Virus record (IMG/VR): IMGVR_UViG_3300017747_002194
Coordinates: 1 to 64,000 of that record
Length of the DNA stretch: 64,000 nt
Origin: a virus
Taxonomy: Duplodnaviria > Heunggongvirae > Uroviricota > Caudoviricetes
Reading direction: 5' to 3' (one strand)
The translations under genes were made by a program, and so were the position numbers. Below, in pieces: positions 3,799 to 49,328 of the stretch (the first letter of the stretch is position 1; every line of letters begins with the position of its first letter). The notes beneath the pieces are model-generated. The model saw only the letters and a program-made list of their open reading frames with translations. It ran no database searches and was not told the DNA's origin.

Positions 3799-3804
3799 AT
3801 CTTG

Positions 3805-7132: not shown

Positions 7133-7137
7133 CAACA

Positions 7138-7324: not shown

Positions 7325-7350
7325 AACCACTTAGAGAAATCTAGGTGGTT
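7325..7350 (+). terminator. hairpin aaccac-TTAGAGAAATCTAG-gtggtt followed by a T/A run
   Basis: Inverted repeat read directly; it shares the TAGAGAA(A)TCTA loop with hairpins at 33113 and 53807. Confidence 0.5.
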
Positions 7351-7375
7351 TATTATAAAAACTAATCACTAAATT

Positions 7376-7732: not shown

Positions 7733-7737
7733 TTACT

Positions 7738-8073: not shown

Positions 8074-8372
8074 AAAAAGAAGAACTAATTACAGGAGAAT
8101 GTTATGTAAACTCTTATGGAAATATTTTTATATGGGGTATAGGAGATTCAACACATTATTTAGGTAATAGTGCTACAGAATATCATAAAGGTGGTGGTTT
8201 TTTTGATGGTGCTCAAAGATTAGCAACAATAGAAGAGTGTTGGTGGCTAGAGACATGTATAACAATAGGAGATTATATTGAATTTGAAAGGGCTATGGGA
8301 ACATTTAGAACACCAAAGCCTGATGCAGATAAAGATTTAGATATTATTTATAAAAAATTATTAAATGTATGA
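8067..8372 (+). CDS. small paralog family member (type 1) ending DLDIIYKKLLNV
   Basis: RLATIEECWWLETC...IEFERAM core; overlaps its neighbours at start and stop. Confidence 0.7.
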   Translation: MLKKEELITGECYVNSYGNIFIWGIGDSTHYLGNSATEYHKGGGFFDGAQRLATIEECWWLETCITIGDYIEFERAMGTFRTPKPDADKDLDIIYKKLLNV

Positions 8373-8713
8373 AACTACAAGACTGTATAGATGGTGAAAT
8401 ATATTATTGGGAGTCTACAAGGTTTAGGTATATCAATTGGTATAAAAAACCAGAATATCCTTCAGACTTAAATATTAAATGTTATATATCAATAGATAGA
8501 ACTAATTTTTCTTTTAATTCTGCTAGAAATACAAATCCTCAAAATATTAGATTAGCTACACCAGAAGAGAAACATTGGTTACTTTGCTGTGTAAAAGCTG
8601 TTGCATATATTAGTTTTGAAGATGCTTTACTATCATTTACACCAATTAGAGAACCAAATCTTGAAGAGATTAAAGAATTAGAACCTATTTATAAACGTTT
8701 ATTAAATATATAA
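8369..8713 (+). CDS. small paralog family member (type 1) ending LEPIYKRLLNI
   Basis: RLATPEEKHWLLCC...ISFEDALL core. Confidence 0.7.
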   Translation: MKLQDCIDGEIYYWESTRFRYINWYKKPEYPSDLNIKCYISIDRTNFSFNSARNTNPQNIRLATPEEKHWLLCCVKAVAYISFEDALLSFTPIREPNLEEIKELEPIYKRLLNI

Positions 8714-9066
8714 TGATAAAAAATGAAAATTTAATTATTGGAGAATGTTATTTTTGTAAAGATTATGGAGGACATAAAAATAATAGTTACATTCTCAAAT
8801 ACTTAGGTGATATTGACGAATGTCCGCATATAGCTAGTGAAGATAATGATATGCATAAAAATACATTTTATTTAAAAGGAGGCTTTAGCAATAAAGTAAC
8901 TAGATTAGCAACAGCTGAAGAAAAACACTACTTAGAAGAATGTATGATTCATAGTAAATTTATTCCTTATGATGAAGCAATGCTTACTTTTAATAAAAAT
9001 CATAAATCTTATAAAAATGAATCTAAAGAATTAGTACCTATTTACAAAAAACTATTAAACTTATGA
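8713..9066 (+). CDS. small paralog family member (type 1) ending LVPIYKKLLNL
   Basis: RLATAEEKHYLEEC...IPYDEAML core. Confidence 0.7.
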   Translation: MIKNENLIIGECYFCKDYGGHKNNSYILKYLGDIDECPHIASEDNDMHKNTFYLKGGFSNKVTRLATAEEKHYLEECMIHSKFIPYDEAMLTFNKNHKSYKNESKELVPIYKKLLNL

Positions 9067-9296
9067 GAGGGCACAGATTAAACAAGAGACAACCTTTGTC
9101 TCAAGCAATTAAACAGCATGCTAAATTACATGCTAAATACAAAGAGTATTCTGAAAAGACTATTCAAGAATTAGAAGAACTATTACCTATCTTAGGTGGT
9201 GGGTATCGTGAAGTATGTTTATCAGTAATGAAAGAAAAGTTTGTAGCTGATTTAAAATCTAAACAAACTGAAGAAATACCTGAAGGAGAAGCTTAA
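9063..9296 (+). CDS. hypothetical small protein
   Basis: 77-aa ORF coupled within the array; no family motif. Confidence 0.45.
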   Translation: MRGHRLNKRQPLSQAIKQHAKLHAKYKEYSEKTIQELEELLPILGGGYREVCLSVMKEKFVADLKSKQTEEIPEGEA

Positions 9297-9297
9297 T

Positions 9298-9603
9298 ATG
9301 GAAGAGTTTAAACTACCTCAATATTGGAAAGTAAAGTGTGATGAATCTCAAGATAGTGTTTTAACAGATTATATAAATTCGTTAGGTGTATCAAGAAAAA
9401 AATATTATAAAGGCATAGGACATAATAATTGTGTTTATTGGTCTAATAAAGAGTTAATAGGAGATAAACATTATTCTTATAATGAATTTGAAACTCCAGG
9501 TATTACAGAAATCACATATGAACAATTTGAAGAATATGTATTAGGTATAAGTAATAAAGAAGATTCAGATTTAACTGAAATTTATAAAAAATTATTAGGA
9601 TGA
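9298..9603 (+). CDS. small paralog family member (type 2, LPxxW...ITYEQFEEYV domain) ending LTEIYKKLLG
   Basis: FKLPQYWKV...VLTDY...ITYEQFEEYVLGI. Confidence 0.7.
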   Translation: MEEFKLPQYWKVKCDESQDSVLTDYINSLGVSRKKYYKGIGHNNCVYWSNKELIGDKHYSYNEFETPGITEITYEQFEEYVLGISNKEDSDLTEIYKKLLG

Positions 9604-9911
9604 AAGAAAGATTTATATTGCCAGAAAAATGGTACATTGAAGGAGATTCTCATCGTAAAGATGCTAGAGAAGCATGGAATAGCTTGAATGTAGACAAAGG
9701 AGAGTCAGACAATTATGCTTTTTATAAAGGATGCTTTTATTTTTTAGATCTAACAGGTAACAAAGAATATACTACAGGAAAATTACCTGATGATTATATT
9801 GAAATAACACTTGATGATTTCTTAGAGTATGTCGTAGGTATAGCTCCAAATGTAGAAGTAAAAGAAGATCCTGAATTAAATGAAATACTTATTAAACTTT
9901 TAACTAGATGA
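9600..9911 (+). CDS. small paralog family member (type 2) ending LNEILIKLLTR
   Basis: FILPEKWYI...ITLDDFLEYVVGI. Confidence 0.65.
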   Translation: MKERFILPEKWYIEGDSHRKDAREAWNSLNVDKGESDNYAFYKGCFYFLDLTGNKEYTTGKLPDDYIEITLDDFLEYVVGIAPNVEVKEDPELNEILIKLLTR

Positions 9912-18777: not shown

Positions 18778-19253
18778 TGAAAAGCTTTTTATTAAAAGAT
18801 AATAAACCTATTGTAAAATGGTCTATGATACCAGATAATACATTCTTTGAAGGTAAAGTGCCTGAAGGTTATGCATTAGCTGTAGCTCCATCAGATAATT
18901 ATGTTATATTAGATGTTGATGTTAAAAATGGTAAAAATGGATTTATTCATATACTAGAAACTAAAGGAATTATTGATGAATTAGGTAAAACATTTCATTA
19001 TTCAACTAAATCTGGAGGTGAGCATTATTGGATTAATTATACAGGTGATAAAACTCTTTTAAATAAAGCTACTAAGTATGGATTAGATTTAAGAGTTGCT
19101 AAAGGTTCTTATGCTATGGGATATGTTAAATATCCTCATAATGTAGACATTAGACAATGTATTCCTTTAATTAATAAATCTTCTATGGAATTAAATGTGT
19201 GGTTAGAATCATTATTTCAAGGAGTTAAAACATATGAAAAAAGAATTAGTTGA
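18777..19253 (+). CDS. PrimPol-like (bifunctional primase/polymerase N-terminal domain) protein
   Basis: VILDVDVKNG (hhhDhD) and SGGEHYW (GGxH) motifs. Confidence 0.5.
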   Translation: MKSFLLKDNKPIVKWSMIPDNTFFEGKVPEGYALAVAPSDNYVILDVDVKNGKNGFIHILETKGIIDELGKTFHYSTKSGGEHYWINYTGDKTLLNKATKYGLDLRVAKGSYAMGYVKYPHNVDIRQCIPLINKSSMELNVWLESLFQGVKTYEKRIS

Positions 19254-19623
19254 AGAAAGACTTTTAAAAAGAGCTCACCGTAAAGCAATGAGAAGTAGTA
19301 GGCGTATAAATCATGGAAATATGAAAGAAAAATTTGAATTACCTGAAAAATGGGCCATTAAAAGAACAATGTATAATTCTAAAGCTGTAAATGATTGGAA
19401 TAACAATCATCCTTTATTTAAAGAACAGCGTAGACATCACGCTACTTCTATTGTAGATGGTGGTTACTTTTATAGCGATACAGCACATTGGGGAGAACCT
19501 TTACTTGCAGGATATACAGAAATTACATTTGAACAGTTTCAAGAATATGTATTAAATATAAATCCTGTATCTGATAAATCAGAAGATTATTCTTATCTAA
19601 TCCCTTTAATTAAAACATTATGA
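19234..19623 (+). CDS. small paralog family member (type 2) ending DYSYLIPLIKTL
   Basis: FELPEKWAIK...ITFEQFQEYVLNI. Confidence 0.7.
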   Translation: MKKELVEERLLKRAHRKAMRSSRRINHGNMKEKFELPEKWAIKRTMYNSKAVNDWNNNHPLFKEQRRHHATSIVDGGYFYSDTAHWGEPLLAGYTEITFEQFQEYVLNINPVSDKSEDYSYLIPLIKTL

Positions 19624-19928
19624 TAGACAGATTACCTAAAAATTGGTGTATCAGACAAGATGCACATCAAGATGTTTGTGATTGGTTTAATGCAAAGTAT
19701 GGAATAAGTTCATTTTTAGAAGGAGGGTATACTTATTTATGTAAAGTACCTTTAAAAGATACTGGTAGTATATTTCAAGAAATAGCTCCTATTGGATTTT
19801 TAGAAATTACTTATGAAGAATTTAAATTTTTTATTTTAGATAAAGAACATCTTAAAAAAAGAGTAAAATCAAAACCAGAAGATCTATCGTATCTGATAGA
19901 CTTTTTAAAACAACAACAAATAAATTAA
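19620..19928 (+). CDS. small paralog family member (type 2) ending LSYLIDFLKQQQIN
   Basis: LPKNWCI...ITYEEFKFFILDK. Confidence 0.65.
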   Translation: MIDRLPKNWCIRQDAHQDVCDWFNAKYGISSFLEGGYTYLCKVPLKDTGSIFQEIAPIGFLEITYEEFKFFILDKEHLKKRVKSKPEDLSYLIDFLKQQQIN

Positions 19929-31269: not shown

Positions 31270-32344
31270 AATACAAAAATCAATTTATAATTGGTTACTA
31301 ATCAAAGATAGTTATCTAAAATGTAGTCCTAAAGTAATTGCTAAGTATTATCCTAATAAAGCAACCTCTAAAGATATTCAAATAGCATTAGAACAAGCTA
31401 GAATTTTAGTAAAATCTCAAAAATCAGCAAAACCCACACCTTATCCTGGAGATTATGACATATCACACTTAGGGACTATGTATAAAAAATATCTAAAAGA
31501 AAAAAGTGTTGAGGTAATTAAACCAGAAAAAGAAGTTAAAGTTATTAATCAATTAAAAACATCTAAATCAGTAAGAGGTCAACATTACCTTCAACCTGGA
31601 TTATACATTTCAATAGGGTGTGCTCATGCACCATTTCATCTAGCTCCGGCATTTAAAGCTGTTCAACAACTACTACATGATAATAAATCTCAAATAGTTG
31701 GATTAGTTCTAGCAGGGGATTTCTTAGATATGAACAGTTTAAGTAGTCATGATAAAGGTAGAAAACCATTACCTGGAGTTACATTAGATTGGGAATATGC
31801 AGAATCTGAAGTATTATTAAGTAGTTTGTTAGATCCATTAGCTTCTAACATTGAAAAAGTCTATATATTTGGAAATCATGAAGATAGATACCATAGATAT
31901 ATGTCTGATATTGATAATTCTAAACTTGGATCTTCATTAGAAGGCCCTATTTCAGGTTTAAAATTAGTAGATAAAGGATTTCATATCTATGAGAATTGGA
32001 AAGAGGACTATATTACATTAGGCCATCATTTACAAGTATCTCACGGAGAATTCTTCAACGTCCATTCAGCGAAGAAGCATATAGACACTTATAGAAAATC
32101 TGTATTATATTATCATACTCATAGAGTACAGCAGTACATTGAAGGTGCTGTAGGAGGGTATAATGGAGGATCTATGGCTGATTTTAATGCTCCAGTATTT
32201 GGATATGCATCAAGAGCTATGAAGAATAGTTGGCTTAATGGTTTTAATGCTGTTCATGTAGATGAACAAGGATTTTATCATATTCAACAAATAGTTTGCT
32301 ATAACAATAGCTTTGTATTTGGGAATAAAATTTATAAATACTAA
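31256..32344 (+). CDS. calcineurin-like metallophosphoesterase (SbcD/Mre11-like nuclease or phosphatase)
   Basis: AGDFLD (GDxxD), GNHE, GHH and HTH motifs in canonical order. Confidence 0.6.
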   Translation: MKLSKIQKSIYNWLLIKDSYLKCSPKVIAKYYPNKATSKDIQIALEQARILVKSQKSAKPTPYPGDYDISHLGTMYKKYLKEKSVEVIKPEKEVKVINQLKTSKSVRGQHYLQPGLYISIGCAHAPFHLAPAFKAVQQLLHDNKSQIVGLVLAGDFLDMNSLSSHDKGRKPLPGVTLDWEYAESEVLLSSLLDPLASNIEKVYIFGNHEDRYHRYMSDIDNSKLGSSLEGPISGLKLVDKGFHIYENWKEDYITLGHHLQVSHGEFFNVHSAKKHIDTYRKSVLYYHTHRVQQYIEGAVGGYNGGSMADFNAPVFGYASRAMKNSWLNGFNAVHVDEQGFYHIQQIVCYNNSFVFGNKIYKY

Positions 32345-32626
32345 AATACCAAATAACTACATACTAGTTCTTTAATAACTAATAACCTTTAGTAATTTAA
32401 ATTTTTACACCTAGTATTGTAGTTATTTGTTCTTATTGTACCAACTTCTTCCTCTTTAATATGTGTCCCAGTCTATGACCTGTTCTTAGAACATCTCTGT
32501 TAAATGAAAGTTGAGTCCCTTAGACAAGAGGATCCCTTGATTCTAAGTAGCTATATAAGATTGATTTTCCAGCAATGCTTATATTAATCCAGTTAAGCTA
32601 AAGTCGGCTGGTTTTAAAAATAAACT

Positions 32627-32905
32627 ATGACTAAAATAAAACTTGATTCAGAAGAATTTCTTAGACCTGTAATAACTTACATGCTTAGAGAATATGGAGT
32701 AGACTATGATTATGTAGTTAAACATCCTAAAATTAAAGGAGTTGTTTGGTGTCAATATTATTGGGATTCTCCAAAGAGTAAAAAAGAATTTTTAGATTGG
32801 CTTAAAACATTTCTAAAAACAAAAGTAAATTATAAACCACACAAACTTGAAGATGTAATCTATTCAATAGATACAACTTGGGGATTAAAATTAGAAGAAA
32901 AATGA
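32627..32905 (+). CDS. hypothetical protein
   Basis: 92 aa. Confidence 0.5.
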   Translation: MTKIKLDSEEFLRPVITYMLREYGVDYDYVVKHPKIKGVVWCQYYWDSPKSKKEFLDWLKTFLKTKVNYKPHKLEDVIYSIDTTWGLKLEEK

Positions 32906-33102
32906 TACAAGCTTTTTTAACAACATTATTATGGAATACAGTAGGAACACTTATATTTATTATTTGGATACTAAGTATAATGTTTATATGTATTCAAAGA
33001 AATTTCAATAAAGAAAAATATTCTAAAAAAGAATTTATTCTAGATTTAATTATACCATTTAGGTATTTTTATAAAGCTTTTTACAATTTATTTAAAAATT
33101 AA
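32878..33102 (+). CDS. small membrane protein
   Basis: 74 aa with two hydrophobic segments. Confidence 0.45.
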   Translation: MGIKIRRKMIQAFLTTLLWNTVGTLIFIIWILSIMFICIQRNFNKEKYSKKEFILDLIIPFRYFYKAFYNLFKN

Positions 33103-33112
33103 TACAAATTAA

Positions 33113-33142
33113 AAACCCTCCTAGAGAAATCTAAGAGGGTTT
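33113..33142. terminator. bidirectional hairpin aaaccctcc-TAGAGAAATCTAA-gagggttt between convergent + and - gene blocks
   Basis: Inverted repeat flanked by A-run and T-run; same loop motif as the hairpin at 7325. Confidence 0.55.
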
Positions 33143-33249
33143 CTTATAAACAAAACTAAACTATCGTATATGAAAACTATCGTAAACCAGAGAGTAGCTG
33201 TCGGCTATAACACAATGAACAGGAAGGCTTTATTGTCTTTATTCAGTGC

Positions 33250-36200
33250 TTATTTGAAGTAGAAGTTTCCTGAGTTCATTAAATTATCAAATTGTGATTC
33301 TAAGTTAGCCACAGGTACAATATCTCTAAATTCTTTACTTAATTTAGTCATCCCTTTATTAGGTCCTTTGGAAATATATACATCTTTAGTATTTCCTAAA
33401 GAAGCATTAACTGGAGTCTTTACTAACTGTACTAATAACTCACCAAAATCATTAGCTGTTCTTAATCCTGATACAGGGTTTTTTAAATTTGCATATAATG
33501 ATTTAGGATTGATAGCAGCATCTAACTCACCACCAACTCTATCTGATTGTTTTCTTAAAAAGTTTACAAACATTTTTAATTCTTCATCATCATCATCAAT
33601 ACCTTTAGCAATAGACTCTAACATTAACATTAATACAGCAGTAGTCATCCAATAGATACTTTCTACTTGTAATTTCTTTAAATTAGATTTTTCATAATCT
33701 TGTAAGGAATTAAAAGCTGTTCTAATAGAATTAAAATCATACATAGCTCCTGCTTTAATTACAGATATAAATCTAGCAAAAGTTCTATATCTTCCCTCTT
33801 GATAATTACCTGTAGTCTCATCAAAGTACGTAGCTCCATATCTAGATTTACCAAAATTGTATATCCATTTTTTAAATTGCATAGCTGTTTGACCTAAAGC
33901 ATATTCTTGTAAAGCTACTTTATCTCCTTCACTGTAGTTACCATGAATAATCTTATTCATATTTTTAATTTCCACAGACATTGCTCTCCTTTGAACAGGA
34001 GAATATTCAAATCCTTCTTTTAGTTTCAATTCTCCATTAACAAATTCATGAGCTTCCCAAATAGAAAGTTTTTCACCTGTTTTACTATTAGTTAATAATT
34101 CAGATCTTAATTTAGCAATAGCTGTATTAGATTGAGCAACAAATTCTCCAGCAGTAATACCTCCAAACATTATTGTACTTAATACAGAATGATCTTCTAT
34201 AATTTGATTTCTATCAATCCAATTAAATTTTTCAAGCATTGCTTCAAATTTATTAGTAGGTTTAATAGTATGAGGATCTTTACCAACATGTTTCATAAAG
34301 TTCATAGTACTTATTTGTCTAGTAGTATCTGCAATAGCTTTATTTAAATGTTTATTAGTGAATCCAAATTGTTGACCAAATCCTTCTATCCTATTATTAA
34401 TATTAGCCATAATAGTGTTATTAATAGCTGAAAATGGATTTAAACCTAATGATTTATAAGCTACAAAAGTGTTAAAGTTTTGTAATAGTTTAGCTGTTTT
34501 AGTTTGATTAGCTGTAGAATTAGAATAAAATATCATACGCATGTAAGTTTCCATACGTTCTTGTGTTTTAGAAACTCCTTGAATATACTCTTTTTGTCCG
34601 GCACTATTTAATTTAAAGAATTGAGTATTCTTCATTATTTTTCTAGCAATCATTAAAGTAGATTCTGTTTGTTTCATTAAATCATAATTTTCAGCCATAT
34701 GGGCCACTTTAATTAATGATTTAGTCATATCAACTTCTAATTCTTCCGGTGTTAATTTATTCTCTTCAATTAAAATAACATTTTTAGCTATTTTAATTTT
34801 ATTTAATAATTCTTTATTTGAAGGATCTGATATTAATTCTTTTTGTAAAGACTCTAATTTTGCTTCAAGCTTTTTAAGCTTTTCAACATTCTTTAGATCT
34901 GCTGTATACATAATAGGAACATCTTCTACTATTTGTCCATTCTCATCTAATTGTCTAGAACTAAATACAACATCTGGATTTACAAATTGTCTAAATCCTT
35001 TTTTAGCAGCATTAAATATACCTAATTTCTTAGCATCTGTTAATAAAGAGTTTTTTACTCTAAACATTTTACCTTGCATTTTATTTTTTACAGCTAAAGG
35101 TAATTTATCTAATAATTCAGAATTAGCTTTCATTACAAACTCAAAGTATTCTTTTTTAGCTTTTCCTTGAGGAGTTTGATCATTCATTAATTTATAATAC
35201 TCTGGATTACCAAACTTAGTAACTTTACCATTTCTTTCAGTAACTACTTCTGTAAATTCAGGTTTAACATGTGTTACTAAAACTCTTTTTACCTCACCTG
35301 TAGGTTTATAAGTATTACCTACTTTAACTTTAACCATAGCAAAAGTCTCTCTTTCATCTTGATAATACTTACGTCTATACTGTTTATATAATTTATCATA
35401 CATTTCTGGAGTAACTTCTTCACCGCTAGCTAATTTAGATCCGGGCACATAAGGTTTTTTAACCCATGAAAAAAATCCATTCTCTCCAATAGATAGAAAT
35501 TCAAATTCACTTCTTGCTTGTTTAAACTCATCAGTATACTTTTTATTCTCACCATCTTGTAAACCCTGCTCTCCTAAAGTTTCAGCTTTTAAGAAACTAG
35601 CCAATTGAGCTTTATCTTCAGCTAATTTAATATTATGCTCTTTTTCTTCTTTAGAAAGAGTTTCTCCTGGTTTATAAATATACTCTCTTTTATTACCATG
35701 TTTATCCTCTAAAAGTTCATAAACTTTCTTTTCAGCATCATAATAAGCTTGAGATACTTTTTGTAATAATCTACCTGTTAACTTACTATCTTTATTCTTT
35801 TGATACATCCAATCAAATCCTTCTACTCCAGCTTTCTTTAACTTTTCACCGGCTCTAACAATTTTATCAACCCAAGTATTAGTATTTTCATAAACAGCTT
35901 CTCTAGTTTTTTCAACCTCTTTCTGTAATAACTGTAACAAAGGACTAACACTATTAGACATACCTCCCATTTTTAATTCTTGGATAGATATATCTTTAGC
36001 TTCTTTTAACATATTTTTAATATCTTCTTCTGTTAAATCTCTTTTAGAATTTGTTTTAACAAAATTAACCATATAAGTTTCTAAGATATTATTAATATCA
36101 TCATTAATATCAGCATACATAGAGTCAATTTCTCCACCTATCTTTTTAATATCATCATTGTATCCTACCATTTGAGGTAAGAATGTTCTTAAATCATTAT

Positions 36201-36699
36201 AAGAATCTAGTTGATTACTTATTTGTAATAAGAAGTTAATATGATCAGGATTATTCATATCAAATTTATTTTCCAAGAATTCTCTAGTTGTAGTTAATTC
36301 ATGGTGCATAAATTCTGCAGTCTTTAAAAAAGCTTCAGTATTTTCTAAAGTAGATAATTGTTCTTTTAAATCCTTTAATCTATTAATAGTTTCCTCTTTA
36401 GGTAAATATCCTTTTCTTTCTTTAGCAGACTCAAATACTAATATCCTAGCTTTTAATTTATCAGCTTGATCTTTTAATAAATTATTTAAACGAGTGATTA
36501 CTCGGTTACTTAATTCTTTTTTTTCAGTGCTTTCAATAGGCTCTTCAAAAGTTTTTTGATTACTAGGTACAGTAGAGATAATTTCTTCTATATTACTAAA
36601 ATCAGGTTTAACATTATATCTATTCTGATTATTCTTTAAATATTCGATTAACTCTTCTTTAGAGTAAGTCTTCCCATTATGGGTATATAAACATGCCAT
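33250..36699 (-). CDS. large coiled-coil-rich virion-associated protein (1149 aa)
   Basis: Last gene of the minus-strand structural operon, with long helical low-complexity stretches; function not recognized. Confidence 0.6.
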   Translation of the reverse strand: MACLYTHNGKTYSKEELIEYLKNNQNRYNVKPDFSNIEEIISTVPSNQKTFEEPIESTEKKELSNRVITRLNNLLKDQADKLKARILVFESAKERKGYLPKEETINRLKDLKEQLSTLENTEAFLKTAEFMHHELTTTREFLENKFDMNNPDHINFLLQISNQLDSYNDLRTFLPQMVGYNDDIKKIGGEIDSMYADINDDINNILETYMVNFVKTNSKRDLTEEDIKNMLKEAKDISIQELKMGGMSNSVSPLLQLLQKEVEKTREAVYENTNTWVDKIVRAGEKLKKAGVEGFDWMYQKNKDSKLTGRLLQKVSQAYYDAEKKVYELLEDKHGNKREYIYKPGETLSKEEKEHNIKLAEDKAQLASFLKAETLGEQGLQDGENKKYTDEFKQARSEFEFLSIGENGFFSWVKKPYVPGSKLASGEEVTPEMYDKLYKQYRRKYYQDERETFAMVKVKVGNTYKPTGEVKRVLVTHVKPEFTEVVTERNGKVTKFGNPEYYKLMNDQTPQGKAKKEYFEFVMKANSELLDKLPLAVKNKMQGKMFRVKNSLLTDAKKLGIFNAAKKGFRQFVNPDVVFSSRQLDENGQIVEDVPIMYTADLKNVEKLKKLEAKLESLQKELISDPSNKELLNKIKIAKNVILIEENKLTPEELEVDMTKSLIKVAHMAENYDLMKQTESTLMIARKIMKNTQFFKLNSAGQKEYIQGVSKTQERMETYMRMIFYSNSTANQTKTAKLLQNFNTFVAYKSLGLNPFSAINNTIMANINNRIEGFGQQFGFTNKHLNKAIADTTRQISTMNFMKHVGKDPHTIKPTNKFEAMLEKFNWIDRNQIIEDHSVLSTIMFGGITAGEFVAQSNTAIAKLRSELLTNSKTGEKLSIWEAHEFVNGELKLKEGFEYSPVQRRAMSVEIKNMNKIIHGNYSEGDKVALQEYALGQTAMQFKKWIYNFGKSRYGATYFDETTGNYQEGRYRTFARFISVIKAGAMYDFNSIRTAFNSLQDYEKSNLKKLQVESIYWMTTAVLMLMLESIAKGIDDDDEELKMFVNFLRKQSDRVGGELDAAINPKSLYANLKNPVSGLRTANDFGELLVQLVKTPVNASLGNTKDVYISKGPNKGMTKLSKEFRDIVPVANLESQFDNLMNSGNFYFK

Positions 36700-36713: not shown

Positions 36714-37142
36714 TTATCTACTACAAAATTGAGTTATTTCACCGGATTTTAACAATCTTTCAAAATCTTCTATCCCTGTATAATCATCTATAACTTCTTC
36801 TACTTCTTCATTTAAAGTTTCTTTAGCACCTTCATTCTCTAATATATCAAAATTAGTTTGAAGTTGATTAAAAAATTCTTTATTTGGCTCAGCTCTAAGA
36901 ATAGAAGTAATATTATCTCTACGATAAGTAGATCCTATAATTTCTTTAACAGGATCCTCTTTTACTACATTAAATGGTAATTCTTCAGAATTAACTCCAT
37001 ATAAATTTTTAGCTTGTTCTTTTAATTCTAAGTTAGCTTTATTAAAAGCATCTAATTTAGTTGGAACAATCGCTCTACTTTCAGATATAATACCTTTATA
37101 GTACATGTCTCTAATAGCATTATCTAATACATTACATCCCAT
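36714..37142 (-). CDS. hypothetical protein
   Basis: 142 aa, between two giant ORFs. Confidence 0.5.
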   Translation of the reverse strand: MGCNVLDNAIRDMYYKGIISESRAIVPTKLDAFNKANLELKEQAKNLYGVNSEELPFNVVKEDPVKEIIGSTYRRDNITSILRAEPNKEFFNQLQTNFDILENEGAKETLNEEVEEVIDDYTGIEDFERLLKSGEITQFCSR

Positions 37143-37145
37143 AGG

Positions 37146-40100
37146 TTAACATTTAAATGGATTTTTACCATCATTAACTATTTTATTAACATCATCTCTT
37201 AAAGATTTAAAATCTTCAAAAGTAGTTGCATTTTTAAATCTTGTATTCATAATAGATCTTTCTTCTGGAGAAAGAATTGCATCAATTTTCTCTTTATTAT
37301 TTTTAACCAATTCTGTAACTACTACTTTCATTAGATTAGTTTTAGGATCAGCTACCGGCTGTGCTTTAGTTGTATTACCCATAAGAGCTTTCATTTTAGC
37401 AAGAGTAGCTTTTTCTTCCTCCAAAGATACTTCTTTTTCTTCAGATTCCAAAGAATTATCATCAATAATTTCAGCTTTTGTAGCATTAGGTACATTAGTA
37501 TCTTCAGTTCCTAAAGCTTTTTTAAACATGCTCATAATATCAGAAGCAGATTTACCACTTTTAGCTTTTTCCCCTAAATTTATAGGTGTAGATTCTTCAG
37601 TTTTATCAACTTCTTCAGGAGTTACTTGATCAAATAAAGCTTTAGCTGTATCATAAGTTCCTGGGAAATACACACTAACTCCTTTCATACCTATTTGTTC
37701 TAAAGGTTTGTAAGTAGCTTTTTCACCAACACCATAAGGATGTATTGTATTATGCGTATGACCATTAGTAGCATCAATATAATTTAAAAAATCATCTTGC
37801 TTACTAACAAAACCTGTAGCTTTATTTGTAAAAGACTCTAATTCAAAGAATTGATACTCTTCACCTATTCTCACTTTAATAAATTGTGGGAATTTAAAAG
37901 TAGGTTGTGCTGAATTTTCATTCTTAGTTTTCAGCATTACAGGGAAAACTTCTTTTAATTTACCCTTACTATCTTTAAATTCTTGCTCAGAATTAGTACT
38001 AACTTCAAATACTAATCTATCTCCATTCATTCTAATAGGTCCTTTCTCAGTAACATTAATCTTATGAGTATGCATAGCAGCATATGTAGTATTTACATCT
38101 GTGATATACATTTTTCTAAAATTATAAGCAGCTTGACCAAAATCAATACTTGGATTTTTAGCAACTAAACCTTTAACTAAATCATCTAAAGTTTCTGAAT
38201 ACTTATTAAACATATTCACCGGTAAATATTTAGCTACACTGTTATTCTTAAAAGTCATGTTATCTTTAACCATTAAATAGCTAAGCATATTATCTACAAA
38301 GTTTCTAGGAGTTAATCCAGCTTCATTTAATTGAGTTTGGTTATCATACCATAAAGATTTGACAGAATCTATTAATAAAGAAATAGTTTCATTACTTTCT
38401 TTTACAAAAGATTTTGTATCAATAATATTTTCTTTAATAGTAAAGTATTTTACAATATAGTTATCTTTAGTAGTAGGATTTGATTTTAATAATTCTAATT
38501 GACTAACTAAGTTAACTTGTCCTTCTTTATTTAATTCATTAAAAATTAAACCTAAATTTAAAGAGTCTAATCTCTTTTGAATAGCTTGCTTATTAACTTC
38601 TTTAGTATTTACATCATCTCTAAGTTTCTCTAAGTCATTAACATAAGATTTCACAGATAGGTAACCTAAAAATTCTCTACTTAACTCAGCAACATTATCC
38701 ACCACATTAGTAAATCTATCTTGTAAACTATCAAATAACTTACTAAACTCTTTAGTGAATAATTCAGTTTGTTCAATAAATATTTTTTGACCTACATCAG
38801 TACTAACTTGTAAAGCACGTTTAATATTTCCTAAAGTATTAGCATCATCTTTTAGTATTGGTAAAATGTCGATATGCGCTTGACCTACAGCTAATCCTCT
38901 GTCAGCAGTATTTAACGCTTTATTTAATTCAAAAGTGTCAATAGCTTTATGTAATTTTTGATTCATTACAGTAAATGAAGTTTCTAAACCTTGATTTAAA
39001 GTTAAGAAAGTATTTAATGTAGCCATTACATTATACTGCTCTTGGATTTTAACAAATTGATTTAAAGCTTGATATTGTACTTCTAAAGCTGTAGAATTAT
39101 TACTATCTCCTAATTCATTTTTAGTAAACTCTTTACCTAATAAAATATTTTCAATTTGTTCTAAAGTAACTTCTGTTAATTCAGGATCAATTTTAGATAT
39201 TGTTCTATTTACAGCTTCAATTTTATCTTTAGTAATCTCTCCATTATTTTCTAAAGAAACAATAGCAGAAGCTTGAGCATTAGCCTTGTTAAAAGATTCT
39301 TCAATCTCAGTTTTAACTTTAGATACTAAAGCTTTTTGAATTTTACCATACTCTTGAATAATAGGTAAGTTAATAAACTTAACAGCATTTTCAAAACTCA
39401 TACCTTGCATGATAAGTTCTGTAAATCCTCCTAATAATTCAAACTGAATATTTAATTCACCAGCAATAGGATCTTTAGCATTATCTGTAAATACGTTTAA
39501 TAAAATATTTAAGTTATTAGCTATACGCTCATTTTGTTTATTTGTGGCAGAATATGAACCACCAGTCTCACCAGCTATCTCAAATCTAAAAGCATCTTCA
39601 TTAAATTTAACTACTTTATCTCCAACTTTAGACATTAAAAAGGCAAACTGTTGGATCTTATTAGCTGCAATACCAATACCGTCTTTACCTGCAGAGTTTT
39701 TACTATTAGCATCATACTTACCATTAATATCAGAAGCTGACTTATTTTTTTGAGAAATAGTAGATTGTGTAGATTTAATAAAACCTTCAGATTTCAATTT
39801 AGGAACTAAAGCTTTTAATACATCTGTAGATGTAGTATTATTAGCAATCTCAGCGGTATGATTATTAGCTAACATCTTAATCATATTATCTAATGCTATA
39901 TTACTATTAACAGCATTAGGTTTTTTACCTTTATCAACAAAAGATTTTTCTGTATAAGGTAAATCATATTTTTTAGATACTTGCTCGTAATAAGTTTTTT
40001 CAATTATAGCTAACTCTCCTTTTAATCCTTGACTAGCTAAGATTAAAGGTTGTTTTTCTTTCTTACCAACTTCATCAATTTCTTTATCTATTTGCTTAAC

Positions 40101-43100
40101 AGCTTTTTTAATAGAGTTATATCTAAAGTCATTTTTTAATAATTGATTATAGTCTCTACTAAAATCTTTATCATAATTTAAATTATAAAATTTAAAAGCC
40201 TCAAAAGCTTCTTGAAGAGTTTTTTCTGTACCATATTTAATAGGAACAGTAGGAGCTTCTTTTCTATACCAGAAATATGACATTTGAATAAACTCAGAGT
40301 CAATATCAAAATCGGCTCCTGATAAGTGAACAATTTCTGATGGAAAAATACCTATACCGTTGTAATAATCTGGTAATAAACTAACTACTTTTAAAGACAT
40401 TGCTGATTGTTTATCACCTGTAGGAATACGGTATCCTAACATTTTTAAAACCTCAGTCATTTCAGGAGTAATAGTATCTCCTATTTTTAATCCATGTCTA
40501 GTTAATATAGTTTGTGATAACATACACTCACTATATTTTAAATCACCTTCTTCTACATTATATCTTAATGAAGACTCTTCGTATTTAGTAGTATCATTAT
40601 ATTTAGCAGGATCTTTAATTAAAGTATGGTGAGAAATAACTTCACCAGTTACTTTATCTCTAACAACTTTAACACCAGCATCACTAGCTAAAGATACTTT
40701 ATCTCCATTTACTTTTTGATTTAATACACCTTTACTAAAATAAGACAAAATAACTTGTTCAGCTTTAGTAATCATTTGAACCATGTTGTAGTTTAAAGGA
40801 GTATCAAAAAACTCTAATAATTGTTCATCAGCTCCACTAGCTGCTAAAGATCTTTTAACAACTTCATCTAATTGAGTTTTATCAATATTACCATCTGTAC
40901 CAACTTCTTTAATTACACGCATAGCACGTTTAAAAGAAGTATCTCTAGTATCAGCAATAGCTTCATTATACTTCTTTCTAATATCTCCTAATTTAACTCC
41001 ATTAACTACTTCATTATCTTTTAATTCAGAAGCAATTAAAGTTAAAATCTGACTACCAGTAACAATTTCTTTTTTACCAGTAGGAGTTTCTACTTGTAAA
41101 CGTTTATTAGAATTATATACTTTGAATCTAGATTTACTTAAATCTAAATCATCAGCTTGACTATCTTGAGGACTTCTTGTAGCTCCTTTAGATGCAGATT
41201 CTACAGCTAAATGATCTACTTCATGTAAATCCATATTATTGGCTAAATTATGCCAATACTTCATACCTGGTACAGGTTTATATAATTTAGTTAATTCTCT
41301 TACAGTGTTTCTATATTCTACAGATTCATAATCATCCTTAATCATTAAATCAAATATTTTATCTGTAAGTTCTGTAAACTTATCTACATCTTTATCTTCA
41401 ATGTATGAAATAGCACTTCTAATAAGTCCTAATTCAGACATTTTTAAATATTGTCCATTGATACCATCAAATACAATAGTCTTTTTAGAGTTTAAAGAAG
41501 CTAATGCTTCAGATAATGCTTTTTGAGCTTTATCTCCAATATTAACATTTCTAACAACTTTACCATCTACTTTCTTAGTAAATTGAATAATATCTTTATA
41601 AGTCTTTCTAGTCGCACCATCAACTCTACCTAATCTAAAAGCACCCATCATTAAATGGTACTGTGAAGAATAGGACATAGCGTCATTTGATGTATAACTA
41701 GCTATTTGATCTTCAGTTAAATTTAATACTTTACCATCTTCATCAGTAACTTTAGTTAATTTACCAGAAGCATCAAATTCAGGTTTTACTCTAACTAACT
41801 TATTATTAATTATTACAGTAGAAGTATATAAATTAATATCTTTAATAATAGCAGAGTTATGCGTACCTCTTCCATAATCTGGACCAGAAGCCATAGCTCC
41901 TTTATTACGTTTAGAAATATCTACTTTATCTTTTCTAGATAAGGCATAATCACCATCCATTAATTCATTTAATGAATTAGACATAATATAATCATTTATA
42001 TAAAATGAATATAAGAATGGGTCATAAGTTTCTTCTCCACCTTTTAATTCAGTAGTTAAGAATAAATGTATCTTAGCATCTTTTAAAGTGTTTTTAAATT
42101 CTTTAAATGAAATTTGTAAATACTTTTGTACACCATTATTAATAGCATTGATTTGTTCAGAAGTTAATTCTTTAATATCTGGATCTAAAGCAGACTTAAC
42201 TAAATTTTCATAAGCTTCATTACCCATAGTGTCTCTTAAATACTGAAACTCTGTAAAATTAAAAGCTCTTCCTTTTAAAGAATTATTATACCCTTTTAAA
42301 TCTCCAGGTTTTTTATCAAAAGCTTTCTTCTCTCTCTTAATTCTTTCCCACTCTTTAGTTACTTGAGTTAAGAAATATTCTTTAATCTTAGCTTGACCGG
42401 CAACAGATTTAACATCTATTTTAGGTAATTCAGCTACATATCCTGTAGAAGAAGCCTCATTTTGTCTGAATAAGTATTTACCAGTTTCAGTATTTCCTTT
42501 ATTGTGATATAGTGTAAGAGCACTTAATAAATAAGTTCTAGCATCAAAACTACCAAAAGTAACACCATCTTTAGTTTTACCATTCTTAACAGTAGTATCT
42601 CTAAAACCACTTAAAATATTAATTTTTAAATCTTTTAATAATTCTTTATGGTTAGTAACCAAAAAGTTATTTCTTAAAAAGAAAGTATTTTTCTTTTCAA
42701 CTTCAGTCAAGCCTTCACCTTTTTCTACAGACTCCCAATAAGAATCTTTCTTATAAAGTTCAGCTCTAGATAACACATATGAAGGTTTAATAATTTCATA
42801 TACTTTTTTACCTTCAGCATTAGTAAATGAGAAGTTAGCAATAGACTCATCAAATTTAGCATTATTCTCAGCTAATTTTCCTAATCTACCTAATACACCA
42901 TTCTCCTCATCAAATAAAGCTTTTAAATCTTTATTAATAACATCAATAATACTAAAGCCATCATTTAAAGCAGCTGCTCCAAACATTTTAAAATCCATAG
43001 GTTCAGTAGTATCATAGATACTAATAAATGCTTTATCTTTAGCAATTAAATCATCAGGCTTTAAAATAGCCTTTTGTTTAGCTAAAGATATTTTAATGTA

Positions 43101-46100
43101 AATAGAAGTTAAAGTAATACCATTAGCATCTAATGCTTTTTTAATTTCATTAGAAGCTTTATCTAAAGATACTCTACCTTTATAATAATTATTAACTATT
43201 TTATCTACATTAGAAAAATTATGTTGGAATTCTTTTATAGACTTTTCTCTACTAATAAATGTTACTCTATTCTTCCATCTCTCTAAAGAGATTTTCTTAG
43301 CATCATTTTTATTAGCATTATTCCAAGTATTAGCTTTTACTTTAGTAGGTTTACCATCTTTATCTTTAATCCAAGACTCTCCAATTAACACATCAATTTG
43401 TGTAGCTTTAGAGTTTTTAAAATTAGTTAATAAAGCTCTAGTAATGTTACTAGCTTCTGGTGTAGTAGGATAAGTAGTTGTTCTAGTTTCAGGATCAAAA
43501 GTAATTCCTAAATCTTTAATAATTTGCTCATAGAAAGCTTTAATATTAGAGTTACTTTCTGAAGCATCATATAATTTAGCAATCATTCTTTCTTCAGATG
43601 TATCAGCTAATACACTAGTCAATCCATTATATAAAGCAACTTCGTCAACTCCAACCTCTCTATCTTCATTAGTAATTTCATCTCTCTCAATTCTAGTTGT
43701 GAAAGCTACATATTTTTTAATAGTTTGTGATAAAGAGTCATGTCCTCCAGATAAGAATGAATCTTGTGATCCAAAAGTATCTTTCATATGAACAGCTTCT
43801 AACCCACCTTCAGTCTCTTCATTAACTTCTTCTGAAGCTTTGAAATTAAAGATTGATAACTTATCACTAACAGCACTTCTTAATACTTCATATGGTCTAA
43901 GCTTAACATTGTTCATATTATTCTTATCATATAAATATTTTTCAGAAGCTATTTTATTAGCTAGTTCTTTAGCTAACTCAGGATTAGATGTAAATAAACT
44001 TTCACCATAAGCTACTCCTTTAGTATCTAAATCTTCAATTCTTTTATTAATAAAATAATCTAATAATTCTTCATCAGATTTTAATTGACGTTTACCGGCA
44101 GAATCTTTTTCTTCTGAATAAGCATATTCATGTAAAGTAGGATCTCCTGTTTTAGCTTTATAGATTTGAATAGCAAAGAAGTTAATAATTTTTCTAGAAT
44201 CTGAAGCATTGAAAAATCCATTCTCTTGAGAATTATTCTTCTTAGGTAATAATTTAAATACAGTATCATTCTCTCCAAAATAAGTATTGGTAATTTGTTC
44301 AGCATTAGCAAATTTACCCTTTAGAATGTTATCAAATAACATATCTAATTCAGTCCCAATATTAAATAACTCTTTAAAGAAATTTTTAATCTTAAAGAAT
44401 AATTGTTTTAAAATATTACTAGTCTTTTCTTGATTTTTATTCATAGAGTAATCCATGAATTTATCAGCCATAAATTCTTCTAATACTAAACTCTCTAATT
44501 CCTCTTTAGATTTATTAGTATAGTTAGCAACAGTACCTCTTAATTTATCAACCTCTTCTTGTAAGTTTTTACCAGATTTTGTAAATTCTGAATAAGCCGC
44601 AGCATAATACTTTTCAATTTGAGCATCAGTTAACATTGTTCTGAATACAGCATGGAAAGCCTCATGATAAGCTGTACCTGGCTTACCTTTAGTTTTATTT
44701 AAGTAAATAACTTTGTTTTTAAATGCTCCATAAGGAATACCTTTAACTTTTAAGTTATTTGCAATAGTTTTAATGTCTTCAATAGATATAAATCTAGGAA
44801 GAATTTTTTGAATTTCATCAAGCTCTGCTTGAGTTATACCAGTAGACTCTTCTAATCCAATAGAAAATACTGGATCAGGATCAGATTCTTCATTAGTGTT
44901 TTGTTGTTGTTGATTTAATAAATCCTTAAAAGAAGTAGCTTCTTTTTGAGCTTGCTTTAATTTAGCAAGAATACTAGTAGCTTGCTCTTGCTCTTTAGTA
45001 TCTTCTTCTAAAGCAGCTAGTTCTGCATCATATTGTTTTAAAAAATCTTCAAGAGTATACGTTACTCCATATTTTTTTCCAAGTCTTACTTGTTCTGCTG
45101 ATACTGTATTCTCTAAAGGAATAATACCATTTCCAGAAGATTTATCTTCTTTAGAATATTCTACCTTTTCAAAGTTTTCAATATCCTCAACTAAGTTTTT
45201 AGCTCCTAAACTAAGTAACAAATCTTTTTGAGAACCATACTTTTCATTAATATTTTTTAGTTCATCTAAACTAATATTTTGATAAGTACCTGTTTTATCA
45301 TTAAGTTTTGTTATCTCCCATCTAATATTTCCTCTAGCATTAGCTATATAAAAAGCAGCAAACTGTTTTCCTTTATAAGTAAATCTAAACATAGATTCCT
45401 CTTGGTCAAAAACTACATGAGTAATTTCTCCTTCATTAATTTTTATAGGAGTAGATAGTTGAGCACCTGCAATTTTTATAGCTTCTGATAAAGTAGGTAT
45501 TTCATTTTCTGGAGTAGGATTATCTATACCTGCTATTTTATTTTGAAGTTTGTACTTTACAGATTGTCTAACAGGTACATTTTTATCTTCTTGTCTTCTT
45601 CTTTCTATATCAACTTTAACATCTGTAATAGTTTCAACAGGTGTGTTAGCCACAGAAGTTGGTGTATTATTAGGTAAAGGTTTAGCTTCAGCATTAATTG
45701 AAAACTGTACTCCATATTTAAATAAACCTTTAGGATCCACATAAACTTCTAACTTATTCATATCTACTTCACCCTCAGGTGTTAAGAAAGATGAATATCT
45801 AATATTCTTAGCAGAGAATTTAACAGTTTTATTTACATTACTATCGGCTAATTGATCAATTACATAATCTGCAGATAATAATGAAGGGTGGATATTATTT
45901 AAAATATTTATTCCTTTACTATTTTTCATTTGTACAGGAGCTGAATAAGATCCTGAATTTTTATCTTTAGTTTGTAAAGTAAAATAAAAAGTATTTGTTT
46001 TTACTGAATAGTTTAATTGAAACTTTCTAACTACTCCTTTAACAGGTTCTAGTGCAAAGAAAATAGTCTCATTAAATTTATCAATAGCATCTTTAATAAC

Positions 46101-49100
46101 TTTAGAGTCACCTTGAGAATTAGTAATTGTATTAACTACTTCATCAAATGATTCTTGTGCATTAGGATTAGTTTTAGTTTTAACTTTAATAACATCTGTT
46201 CTACCATCAACAGTAACTTCAACATGTAAACCTTGAGCAATATCTGATTGTAATTCAGACATTTGATCTATAGCTTCTTCTATAGAAGGATCGTATTCTC
46301 TAACTTCAGTCTCACCTTCTAAATTAATATCAGTAATACCTTGCTTTAATTTAACAGTATCTGCTGTAGATACTAACATATCATAAGCTTCACCTAAAGT
46401 AGGTTTAGTATCATCTTTTAATAAAGTATTTAAATGTTTAGTTAAATCTAATTGAATAACACCAGCTTGATATAAATTATTAATCTCTTCTAAAGATTTA
46501 ATAGAACCATCGGGATTATAAAATAGAGCAGAGATTGCTTTTTGTTCAGGAGACCCACCATATTTAGAAATAGTAGAAATGTTAACATTTGCAATTTGTA
46601 ACATTACAAACCCATTAACTTCTATAAAATGTACAAGAGATTTATCTTCTTTTGTAGATTTAAAATATTCTAAAGCTTGTCTAACATCATCAAAAGAATC
46701 TAATTGATTTTCTTCATTAGTTCTATATTCACCAACTAAATGTTGTTTACCTTCTTTATCAGTATACAATACTTGAGTATCTCTAGCTTCTGCAGGAGTA
46801 TTTAACATCAAGTGTTTATCATTAGTAGTTTTAACTTCTTCCTTAGGTTTTTGTTGAACAGGTTGAGTAAATCCAAAAGTAGCTGCCGGAATATTACTTG
46901 TAACATCTGAAGCATCTACTGGAGGAATATTTGTATTATCTACAGGAGTTTCCGTAGGAGTAGTCTCTACAGGTTCTGTTGTAGTAGATGTAACAGGAGA
47001 AGTTTGAGTTTCTTCAGCTGGTGTAGGATTTTCTGTAGGTTTTTGTTCTTCATTTTCTATAACTTCTTGAACATCTTGTAAATCTTTAGCTTTAGCTAAA
47101 TCATAAAATTTACCCCATAAATTATCTGAAGCATTTAAAAATATAGCTTGATTTTTAGGATCTTTTAATGCATTATAAGTTAAAGTAAAATCAATTTCTC
47201 TAGATTTTAAATTTTCAACATCATCTAATGCTTTTAATATTTCTTCTTGATGTAATGGTGAAATACCATCAGCTTCAGTAATTTGTTTTTTAAATAGTTT
47301 TTTACCTGCAGCATCTAGTTCATTATAAGCTTTAGCAAAAGATTTAGGATCCATTGCACTATACATCAACATATTATGATCTTTAGACTCTTTATTTAAA
47401 AGAGCTTCAGCAAAACCTATTGAAGTAAAAGCTTCTGAGTTCTCTTGTAATATTTTAGTAACCTTAGCTGCAACTTCAGTCTTACGCTGTTTAGCATTTT
47501 CTAAACCTTGTGCAGAATAGATTAATAATTCTTTAACATCAGGATGTGCTTCAGGAAATAATTTAGTTACTTGATTATACGTTTCTTCTATTTTAGCTAG
47601 TTTATCTAGTCTATCTTGTACATACTTTTGTACAGCACCTTTACCAGTAAGTTGTTCGATACTAGCTTTATTTTCTACATTAACATCAATACCATAGACA
47701 TTTTTTAATTCTTCTACAGTAAGATCTTTGAAATTATTTAATTCTTCTTTAGTATCATTTAATTTACCATTTTGTAATCTGTTATAAGCATATGAAAATA
47801 ACATATCTTCATTAGCATTATGATAATTAAAATCATTATTCTCATCAATAGCTTGATCTTTAATTTCAGTAAGATTAGCAGATCTTACAAAATTATCTAC
47901 AAACTTTTTTCTTAAATCCTCTACTTTATATTTATTTAAAGACTCAACAGCTTGTGCTGTAAGTTTATCTTCCGGATTAGTGATAAATTCATCTTTAAAA
48001 GCTTTTCTACCTTTACCAACTAATACCATACCTGGAGAAGCAATTCCTGCAGATAATGCTCCAATAATACCAGCATGAATACCTTCTTGTGTAGTATAAG
48101 CTTCAGCCATACCTTTAGTAAAAGAATCTAAGAAGTTAGCTGCATTGGGATTATAATATTTATTTACATAGTAATCTTCAGCTGCTTTACCAATACCAAA
48201 TTGTAAAATCTCTTGATTACCTTCTGATAACATAGGTACACCTATCTTACCAGCTCTATATCCTAAATTAGCATACTTACCTTTTTCAACAGCTTTCCAA
48301 GTTTTAGTAGCTTCATCAAAAAAAGTGGTTTTATTAGCTATTTTAGCAAAATCATTAGTTTTATTTCCAAATAAAGCTTTACCAAAAGTTAACCAGTTGT
48401 CAGCCATAATAACTGGTAAGTTCATACCAAAGGCCATATCTCCTGCTTGCTCAGACATCATCTTAGCATAAGCTAATTCTCCTTCTGTCATAGACTTAGG
48501 AGAACCATCAGGATTGGTAGTTAACTTTAAATAAATACTTTTTTGAGCTTCACGAGCTTCAGCACCAGCTTCTCCTGTAGCTGACATTGCAGCTATAGTA
48601 CCTTGTCTAATACCATCTTTAATTTGCTTTTTAGTAGCAGCATTGGCTACAGATTTTAAACTTTCAGTAGCTCCTTCTTTAACCGCATTAGCAATCATTG
48701 TAGCTTCTTCAGCAGTCTGAGCTGCTCCCATAGCTTTACCAAATATTGAAAAAGCTTTAGACCAAGCACCTCCTGTTAAACCGGCTCCAATAGTAGTACC
48801 AGCTCCACCTAGAATATCTCTAAATAAAGTATTAGCATGCCAAAGTTTAGCTAATCCTTTATCAGTAGATTCTTCTTTATCAGAATAGAAAGGATTATTT
48901 TTATCAACAGCTTCATTGAACTTATCTAACTGTTGAGTTAAATCATTATTATAATATGAATTTAAAGAAGGATCCCATTTACCATTTTTATCAGTATGTG
49001 TTAATGCAGCGATAGTTCCATAGAATGGGTTAGCAATACCTTCAGCAGCAGTGCTTAAAGTTTTACCAAGCATATTAACTAAACCATTACCTGCTTTATC

Positions 49101-49328: not shown

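Follow-up and report, generated by a model that had tools for sequence, protein, structure and literature searches.

What kind of protein is encoded by a 12.2-kb phage gene in which a metallopeptidase-like motif and a polymerase-like loop lie on one chain? The gene is found in IMG/VR record IMGVR_UViG_3300017747_002194 (Duplodnaviria; Heunggongvirae; Uroviricota; Caudoviricetes), of which positions 1 to 64,000 were analyzed; this stretch of 64,000 nucleotides (nt) is called the window below. A sequence-only reading of the window had proposed an injected, virion-packaged RNA polymerase (RNAP) fused to a protease and other cargo domains, and we found support for this proposal in a profile match of the core to the RNAP gp66 of phage phi14:2, in a conserved zincin domain, and in the detection of the related protein gp47 in virions of phage PhicrAss001. 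The gene product is, in our judgment, very probably a virion cargo polyprotein of about 460 kDa from a crAss-like phage (order Crassvirales), combining a zincin-bearing cargo protein with an RNAP. Segments of the protein match gp47 and its phi14:2 counterpart gp67 on the one hand and gp66 and its PhicrAss001 counterpart gp50 on the other, and it is therefore best described as an in-frame fusion of cargo protein and polymerase.

The gene is one uninterrupted open reading frame (ORF) on the minus strand (37146 to 49328) that begins with ATG and encodes 4,060 amino acids (aa), the length given in the earlier reading. The peptides that it had placed near residues 1555 and 3007 are also exactly present: HEAFH, within GTAYHEAFHAVF, occupies residues 1555 to 1559, and DFDID, within EIVHLSGADFDIDSEFIQM, occupies residues 3006 to 3010. 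Given the composition of the protein, 0.03 HExxH and 0.003 DFDID motifs would be expected by chance. Both motifs are identical in four related IMG/VR contigs (52 to 81% identity) and are 99 to 100% conserved among 100 to 147 distant homologues. The further HExxH found at residue 2702 is unconserved even inside the clade and was dismissed as a chance occurrence.

RNA polymerase module

Searches with the whole protein as a single sequence (phmmer against the Protein Data Bank [PDB], Pfam at E ≤ 1, and PHROGs) returned no match because the protein is too divergent for such methods. There was likewise no megablast match to phage genomes, the contig index did not contain the exact protein, and word-indexed searches of a set of 5.8 billion proteins (with the core and with a profile) recovered only five to six proteins. 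Relatives were found by tblastn against 50,697 phage records and with segment profiles built from the four related contigs and about 100 distant homologues. By tblastn, residues 2400 to 3700 matched RNAP-annotated genes in 81 crAss-like records, phi14:2 g066 and p-crAssphage KP06_gp44 among them, and residues ~1500 to 1677 and 43 to 415 matched genes annotated as "putative RNA-polymerase subunit" in PhicrAss001, IAS virus, and cr111_1.

The profile of aa 2540 to 3440 (100 sequences) matched gp66 residues 955 to 1764 over about 850 profile positions (E = 2.6e-62, with the database size, Z, set to the PDB sequence set), and it also matched gp50 (7e-57), p-crAssphage gp44 (9e-53), and cr111 gp033 (3e-50). 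On either side of this core, aa 2150 to 2540 matched gp66 515 to 986 (E = 7.5e-25) and aa 3440 to 3800 matched gp50 1985 to 2192 (E = 2e-11). The gp66 protein is an RNAP that is delivered by the virion, depends on Mg2+, resists rifampicin, and transcribes early genes; a crystal structure and biochemistry are available, every aspartate of its loop 1361-DFDID-1365 is essential (the mutants are inactive), and its landmarks include a connector (1095 to 1238), a bridge helix (1529 to 1559), and a trigger loop (1598 to 1636) (Drobysheva et al., bioRxiv 10.1101/2020.03.07.982082). The suggested comparison of the DFDID region with gp66 thus yielded both profile homology and aligned aspartates, D3006, D3008, and D3010 standing opposite D1361, D1363, and D1365. 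On this profile evidence, the DFDID region and the gp66 catalytic core are homologous.

Conservation within the core follows the same landmarks, with which about 30 near-invariant positions coincide. Identical in all 100 diverse sequences, and also in gp66, are the three loop aspartates, R2967, P2969, Q2745, and Q2760, and K2714, K2872, N3143, G3219, D3282, N3283, and K3285 are 93 to 98% conserved and again identical in gp66. The connector (~140 residues) corresponds to residues 2740 to 2878. A second double-psi beta-barrel (DPBB) with conserved basic residues had been proposed as a target of the search; K2714 and a GSQ motif were found in the gp66-aligned stretch that covers the start of the connector and the residues just before it, the site of the first barrel. 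In the bridge-helix equivalent, GIGIAAN lies at about aa 3215 to 3221 and both G3214 and G3219 are at least 90% conserved; DNAKDP of the trigger-loop equivalent is aa 3282 to 3287. The R-x-P motif within GYRIPT is one that we take to resemble NRAPTLH of cellular beta-prime.

The loop had been described as lacking the usual glycine, as in crAss-like RNAPs. Position 4 is indeed isoleucine here, and isoleucine or valine at this position is the rule among crAss-like RNAPs (Drobysheva et al., bioRxiv 10.1101/2020.03.07.982082). For the whole protein, there was no match to the Pfam beta-prime (RNA_pol_Rpb1) domains at E ≤ 1. As separate observations on the loop, cr111_1 gp033, which is annotated as an RNAP, has DLDVD instead of DFDxD, and metagenomic relatives have DYDID, DYDVD, and DLDID variants, so that position 2 is not strictly phenylalanine.

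Zincin domain

The profile of aa 1500 to 1720 matched gp47 residues 2100 to 2301 (E = 1e-24). In gp47 (TTYHEAFHVVF...LEENMAEGF), as in orthologues of gp47 from several genera, this domain of about 200 aa is the C-terminal part, and an exhaustive HMMER scan with the domain recovered 1,512 cluster representatives at E ≤ 1e-3. Among 147 aligned sequences with about 35% identity, H1555, E1556, and H1559 are 99% conserved, E1617 is 100% conserved, E1618 is 99% conserved, and A1621 is 98% conserved. An AlphaFold model of the domain from a 30-sequence alignment had a predicted local distance difference test score (pLDDT) of 82.4, exceeding 90 over the motif helices, and a predicted template modeling score of 0.77; both HExxH and E1617/E1618 lie in helices in this model. 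The predicted structure matches the zincin fold, and the closest folds include ArdC, the Pro-Pro-endopeptidases PPEP-2 and PPEP-3, lethal factor, and CapP. Foldseek of the model was not significant against the PDB; against viral models it recovered large proteins of many crAss-like phages and virion or "polyvalent" proteins of other phages.

Sequence comparison placed the domain in no characterized family. It had no Pfam match at E ≤ 10 and no significant match to the M34 or Pfam ATLF family profiles, and a weak PDB profile match to Clostridioides difficile PPEP-1/Zmp1 (E = 0.5), which aligned HExxH and EEFFAESF, was gone with a deeper profile. Our conclusion from the model is a zincin fold carrying an H-E-x-x-H...E metal site; the domain would work in the manner of the lethal factor/PPEP group, which it resembles in predicted fold and motifs, without being a demonstrable M34 member. 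The HExxH regions of phi14:2 gp65 and p-crAssphage gp45 were both unmatched by the domain profile, and crassviruses therefore seem, from these sequence comparisons, to carry zincins of at least two types, or else versions that have diverged very far.

Cargo module, middle region, and junction

The conserved N-terminal module of about 750 aa marks the protein as a member of the gp47/gp67 type. Cargo proteins with this module are PhicrAss001 gp47, phi14:2 gp67, IAS gp058, cr111 gp032, and p-crAssphage gp45. The profile of aa 1 to 450 matched gp47 68 to 524 (E = 6e-71), IAS gp058 (6e-61), and phi14:2 gp67 48 to 412 (E = 6e-47), that of aa 450 to 760 matched gp47 552 to 843 (E = 5e-25), and the module matched p-crAssphage gp45 at E = 1e-10. 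A hydrophobic, transmembrane-like segment within the module and the low-complexity linker that follows it are compatible with a role in an ejection channel. Both the N-terminal module (aa 43 to 415) and the zincin fold have further matches among "structural proteins" of phi17:2 and phi4:1, Cellulophaga phages outside the crass group (tblastn E = 3e-4; template modeling score of 0.60 in BFVD), and this type of cargo protein therefore extends beyond Crassvirales.

The middle region is poorly conserved. Within-clade identity is 22 to 34% over aa 801 to 1400 and climbs to 46% for aa 1401 to 1500, and a profile of aa 820 to 1480 matched only four to five representatives, with no detectable relatives beyond the clade.

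Extent of the fusion

The single chain is widespread. One frame is kept across the junction in the four related contigs, 117 of 148 cluster representatives reach 3,000 aa or more, and in 103 of the 148 YHExxH is followed on the same chain by a D[FY]D[IV]D-type loop, at a median spacing of 1,464 aa (1,451 aa here). Six representatives (about 4,550 to 5,000 aa) also have, at the C terminus, a part like gp49 of PhicrAss001 and gp65 of phi14:2. By sequence, all three modules appear to be fused in P0044, P0064, and P0123, which have both motifs and this part; in P0050 and P0069, a motif search found no catalytic loop. According to the literature, RNAP genes of crAss-like phages reach about 6,000 aa, and such giant genes are a hallmark of the group.

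Both parts and the fusion type were thus already known, and the giant protein is ordinary crassvirus biology; the zincin, the DFD[I/V]D loop, and the polyprotein fusion are all in the literature and carry little weight as a discovery. What the analysis offers is an exact domain map for a very divergent environmental member without Pfam or PHROGs annotation. It also shows that the single-chain arrangement of cargo, zincin, and RNAP is common in metagenomes (at least ~100 clusters at 50% identity), and that in the gp47-type HExxH domain the H-E-x-x-H...E-E site is strictly conserved and the predicted fold is nearest to those of PPEP, lethal factor, ArdC, and M32.

Proposed role and alternative readings

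By analogy with phi14:2 and PhicrAss001, the protein would be made late and stored in the cargo zone of the capsid, and it would then leave through the tail in a partly unfolded state, entering the host before the DNA or together with it. There, the polymerase part would transcribe the early plus-strand replication genes without the host RNAP. More speculatively, the zincin might cut the polyprotein at the variable junction (aa ~1725 to 1750) or remove an inhibitory segment, so that the polymerase would be released or activated after ejection. Several points weigh against the reading as a cargo polyprotein with a virion RNAP. Packaging, ejection, and proteolytic processing are steps that we infer, and the junction is only a candidate cleavage site. 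An AlphaFold2 (AF2) model of aa 2540 to 3440 from a nine-sequence alignment had a pLDDT of 40 and was unusable, leaving the DPBB fold without structural confirmation, and assignment to the polymerases therefore rests on profile homology to a crystallized enzyme. Finally, the phi14:2 zincin, which lies in gp65, has no detectable sequence kinship to the zincin described here.

The HExxH domain might instead be an injected effector or lytic enzyme acting on host targets (peptidoglycan or envelope proteins during penetration, or defense or transcription proteins) and not a self-processing protease. We regard this as rather unlikely. In its favor, the closest folds (ArdC, PPEP-2/3, lethal factor, and CapP) all act in trans, the same fold recurs in unrelated phages, where large virion and "polyvalent" proteins contain it, and digestion of host peptidoglycan was raised as an option by Drobysheva et al. 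(bioRxiv 10.1101/2020.03.07.982082). However, the domain always accompanies the RNAP, either in cis or immediately upstream of it, as would befit a function linked to the polymerase. In a more elaborate form, which we consider improbable, the zincin would be a trans-acting effector like lethal factor, PPEP, or ArdC that cleaves a host envelope, defense, or transcription protein at genome entry, and the uncleaved 460-kDa chain, tethered to the membrane by its N-terminal transmembrane-like segment, would be a transcription motor that helps to pull the DNA in. If this were true, the zincin would not be a maturation protease, and an effector would be delivered physically coupled to the polymerase.

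A degenerate, noncatalytic zincin remnant with only a structural or metal-binding function is a still more doubtful explanation. The domain has no significant sequence match to characterized peptidase families, and phi14:2 gp67, IAS gp058, and cr111 gp032 have no HExxH in the corresponding protein, but the putative catalytic glutamate and the three predicted ligands are 99 to 100% conserved in the 147 sequences at an overall identity of about 35%, a pattern typical of an active site under selection.

We give hardly any credence to the idea that the resemblance of the DFDID region is due to chance and that the protein, having no polymerase activity, serves only in structure or ejection. The failed AF2 model and the empty single-sequence searches of Pfam, PHROGs, and the PDB would agree with it, whereas the profile match to a crystallized, biochemically active RNAP and the near-invariant positions at its catalytic landmarks contradict it at the level of homology; polymerase activity of the giant protein is a prediction from sequence. 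It is just as implausible that adjacent gp47-like and RNAP genes, which are separate in phi14:2, PhicrAss001, cr111_1, IAS virus, and p-crAssphage, were merged here by a sequencing or assembly error, a missed stop, or a frameshift, as this is already contradicted by the four independent contigs that are continuous through the junction, the long two-motif chains among the 148 representatives, and the even base composition along the whole length of the gene.

Genomic context

The coordinates of all features are given in Table 1. The giant gene sits in a virion/cargo operon, after the muzzle and ring protein genes: the muzzle protein (PF25731) and tail ring proteins 1 and 2 (PF24228, E = 1e-44; PF25702, E = 8e-40) are encoded upstream on the same strand, and from these signatures the genome therefore belongs to Crassvirales. 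The gene order agrees with those of phi14:2, cr111_1, and PhicrAss001, the usual crassvirus order being muzzle, two mid-sized cargo proteins, gp47/gp67-like protein, RNAP (gp50/gp66), and gp49/gp65-like protein. The plus-strand half of the window (1 to 32.3 kb) faces the minus-strand virion block, an arrangement matching that of phi14:2, in which the early genes are the rightward replicative ones, the leftward modules for "gene expression" and the capsid being middle or late.

The sequence-only reading had taken the giant gene for the last of the operon; this did not hold, as two codirectional ORFs and then a terminator-like hairpin come after it. The longer of these ORFs matches gp65 968 to 1371 and also the C-terminal part of p-crAssphage gp44 (E = 2e-9). 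The third cargo protein, of the gp65/gp49 type, is thus split here into two ORFs of 142 and 1,149 aa. HExxH is absent from both, and phi14:2 gp65 has HEIMH at residue 245.

TABLE 1 Features of the giant gene and its surroundings in the window
Feature	Position (nt)	Strand	Basis
Giant ORF, 4,060 aa: gp47/gp67-type cargo protein with zincin domain + gp66/gp50-type virion RNAP (predicted)	37146..49328	-	
N-terminal module, aa 1-760, common to crassvirus "RNAP-associated/RNAP subunit" cargo proteins	47049..49328	-	Segment profiles
Gly/Ala-rich hydrophobic, transmembrane-like segment IHAGIIGALSAGIASPGMVLVGKG, aa 417-440	48009..48080	-	Kyte-Doolittle 19-aa window, maximum 1.78; function inferred
Pro/Thr/Glu-rich low-complexity linker, aa 751-817	46878..47078	-	
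Clade-specific middle region, aa 820-1480, poorly conserved	44889..46871	-	
Zincin-fold metallopeptidase-like domain, aa 1500-1700, equivalent to C terminus of PhicrAss001 gp47 (2100-2301)	44229..44831	-	
HEAFH, aa 1555-1559: predicted zinc ligands H1555, H1559; predicted catalytic E1556	44652..44666	-	
EEFMADKF, aa 1617-1624: predicted third zinc-ligand helix (E1617/E1618)	44457..44480	-	
Variable junction of gp47-like and RNAP modules, aa ~1725-1750; candidate processing site	44079..44156	-	Indels among relatives
gp66/gp50-type single-chain RNAP module (predicted two-barrel), complete, aa ~1730-3800	37929..44141	-	Segment profiles
Catalytic core, aa 2540-3440: both DPBB regions, connector, bridge helix, trigger loop	39009..41711	-	Alignment to gp66
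GYRIPT, aa 2965-2970, R-x-P motif of beta-prime-like DPBB	40419..40436	-	Aligned to gp66 R1322, P1324
DFDID, predicted Mg2+-binding catalytic loop, aa 3006-3010	40299..40313	-	Aligned to gp66 1361-DFDID-1365
Bridge-helix equivalent GKDGIGIAANK, aa 3200-3230	39639..39731	-	Aligned to gp66 1529-1559
Trigger-loop equivalent FTDNAKDP, aa 3268-3306	39411..39527	-	Aligned to gp66 1598-1636
Variable C-terminal tail, aa 3800-4060	37149..37931	-	
Crassvirus muzzle protein, upstream, same operon	53859..58772	-	PF25731, E = 2e-117
Downstream 142-aa ORF, resembles phi14:2 gp65 N terminus	36714..37142	-	blastp vs gp65 1-84, E = 4e-8
Downstream 1,149-aa ORF, third "RNAP-associated" cargo protein, gp65/gp49-like	33250..36699	-	gp49 E = 3e-25, gp65 E = 5e-14
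Terminator-like hairpin, 15-bp stem then T run, closes operon	33111..33144	-	

The unusual hairpins at operon boundaries had been linked to the polymerase, a link for which we found no support. Two near-identical palindromic hairpins contain TAGAGAAATCTA: the one that closes the operon lies in a 906-nt convergent gap (32344 to 33250), and the other (7321 to 7351) comes after a tRNA gene on the plus strand; a weaker third copy is at 9933. Exact copies of the core number two (at 7332 and 33122), and with a motif count of two to three it is no more frequent than in shuffled sequence. Both hairpins look like (bidirectional) terminators. Early transcripts of gp66 in phi14:2 share no common upstream motif, and with the shuffle counts and the terminator-like form this led us to reject the idea of hairpin promoters.

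Other genes were noted in passing. A GIY-YIG homing endonuclease gene (58774 to 59388, minus strand; PF01541; phrog_314, E = 2e-26) lies within the virion operon, between those for ring protein 1 and the muzzle protein. The plus-strand early/replication block contains a single tRNA-Met (CAT) gene (7060 to 7133) and runs of small paralogous ORFs of about 100 to 120 aa (7376 to 9911 and 19234 to 19928, plus strand) with repeated 3' ends and starts (repeat families D1 to D5 and D12), which points to a family of small early-region genes that may have arisen by tandem duplication.

Comparison with known systems

Some comparisons concern function and fold. The giant virion RNAP of Schitoviridae (N4-like phages) is a functional analogue, being packaged in the capsid, ejected, and used for early-gene transcription; no similarity between it and the giant protein was found. 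The N4 enzyme belongs to the T7-like single-subunit polymerases and has an unrelated fold. Neurospora QDE-1 and the cellular RNAP beta and beta-prime subunits share two DPBB domains and a DxDxD Mg2+ loop with this group, according to the gp66 structure paper, but they have no detectable sequence similarity to the giant protein, which is a single chain with isoleucine and not glycine at loop position 4. Similarly, M34-type zincins (lethal factor and Pro-Pro-endopeptidase), ArdC, and M32 carboxypeptidases differ from the HExxH domain in having no significant sequence similarity to it (best E = 0.5) and no shared Pfam match, and the domain here is embedded in a 4,060-aa virion protein.

PhicrAss001 provides relatives of both halves in its capsid cargo proteins gp47 and gp50 (Bayfield et al. 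2023, PMC10172136); mass spectrometry detected gp47, gp49, and gp50 in its virions. Its gp47 (2,341 aa) has the same N-terminal module and the same C-terminal zincin domain as the giant protein, and its gp50 (2,412 aa) has the same RNAP core, with DFDVD as the loop. In contrast to the one ORF here, gp47 and gp50 are two genes on opposite strands, and the middle region of gp47 is unrelated to aa 820 to 1480.

In phi14:2, gp66 is alike in its homologous catalytic core, its identical DFDID, and its R-x-P, bridge-helix, and trigger-loop motifs, although identity to the giant protein is only about 18 to 23%. It is also alike in its place downstream of the tail and muzzle genes, with a gp67-like part upstream and gp65-like genes downstream. 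It differs in being a stand-alone protein of 2,180 aa, whereas the polymerase here is the C-terminal ~2,300 aa of a longer chain, and the HExxH of phi14:2 occurs in the downstream gp65.

An architectural parallel is found in p-crAssphage (Carjivirus communis), where KP06_gp45 is annotated as "RNAP associated protein fused to zincin protease" and the adjacent KP06_gp44, of 4,070 aa, as "RNAP catalytic subunit fused to unknown RNAP subunit." Its zincin (HESLH) is unmatched by the HExxH-domain profile; the three modules have the same order in giant fused genes, with the zincin just ahead of the polymerase. The break points differ: p-crAssphage joins cargo and zincin in one gene and RNAP and the third protein in the next, the phage studied here joins cargo, zincin, and RNAP and leaves the third protein apart (142 and 1,149 aa), and phi14:2 uses three genes. 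As the break points between cargo modules vary by lineage, these phages form a natural set for asking if and where the polyprotein is cleaved.

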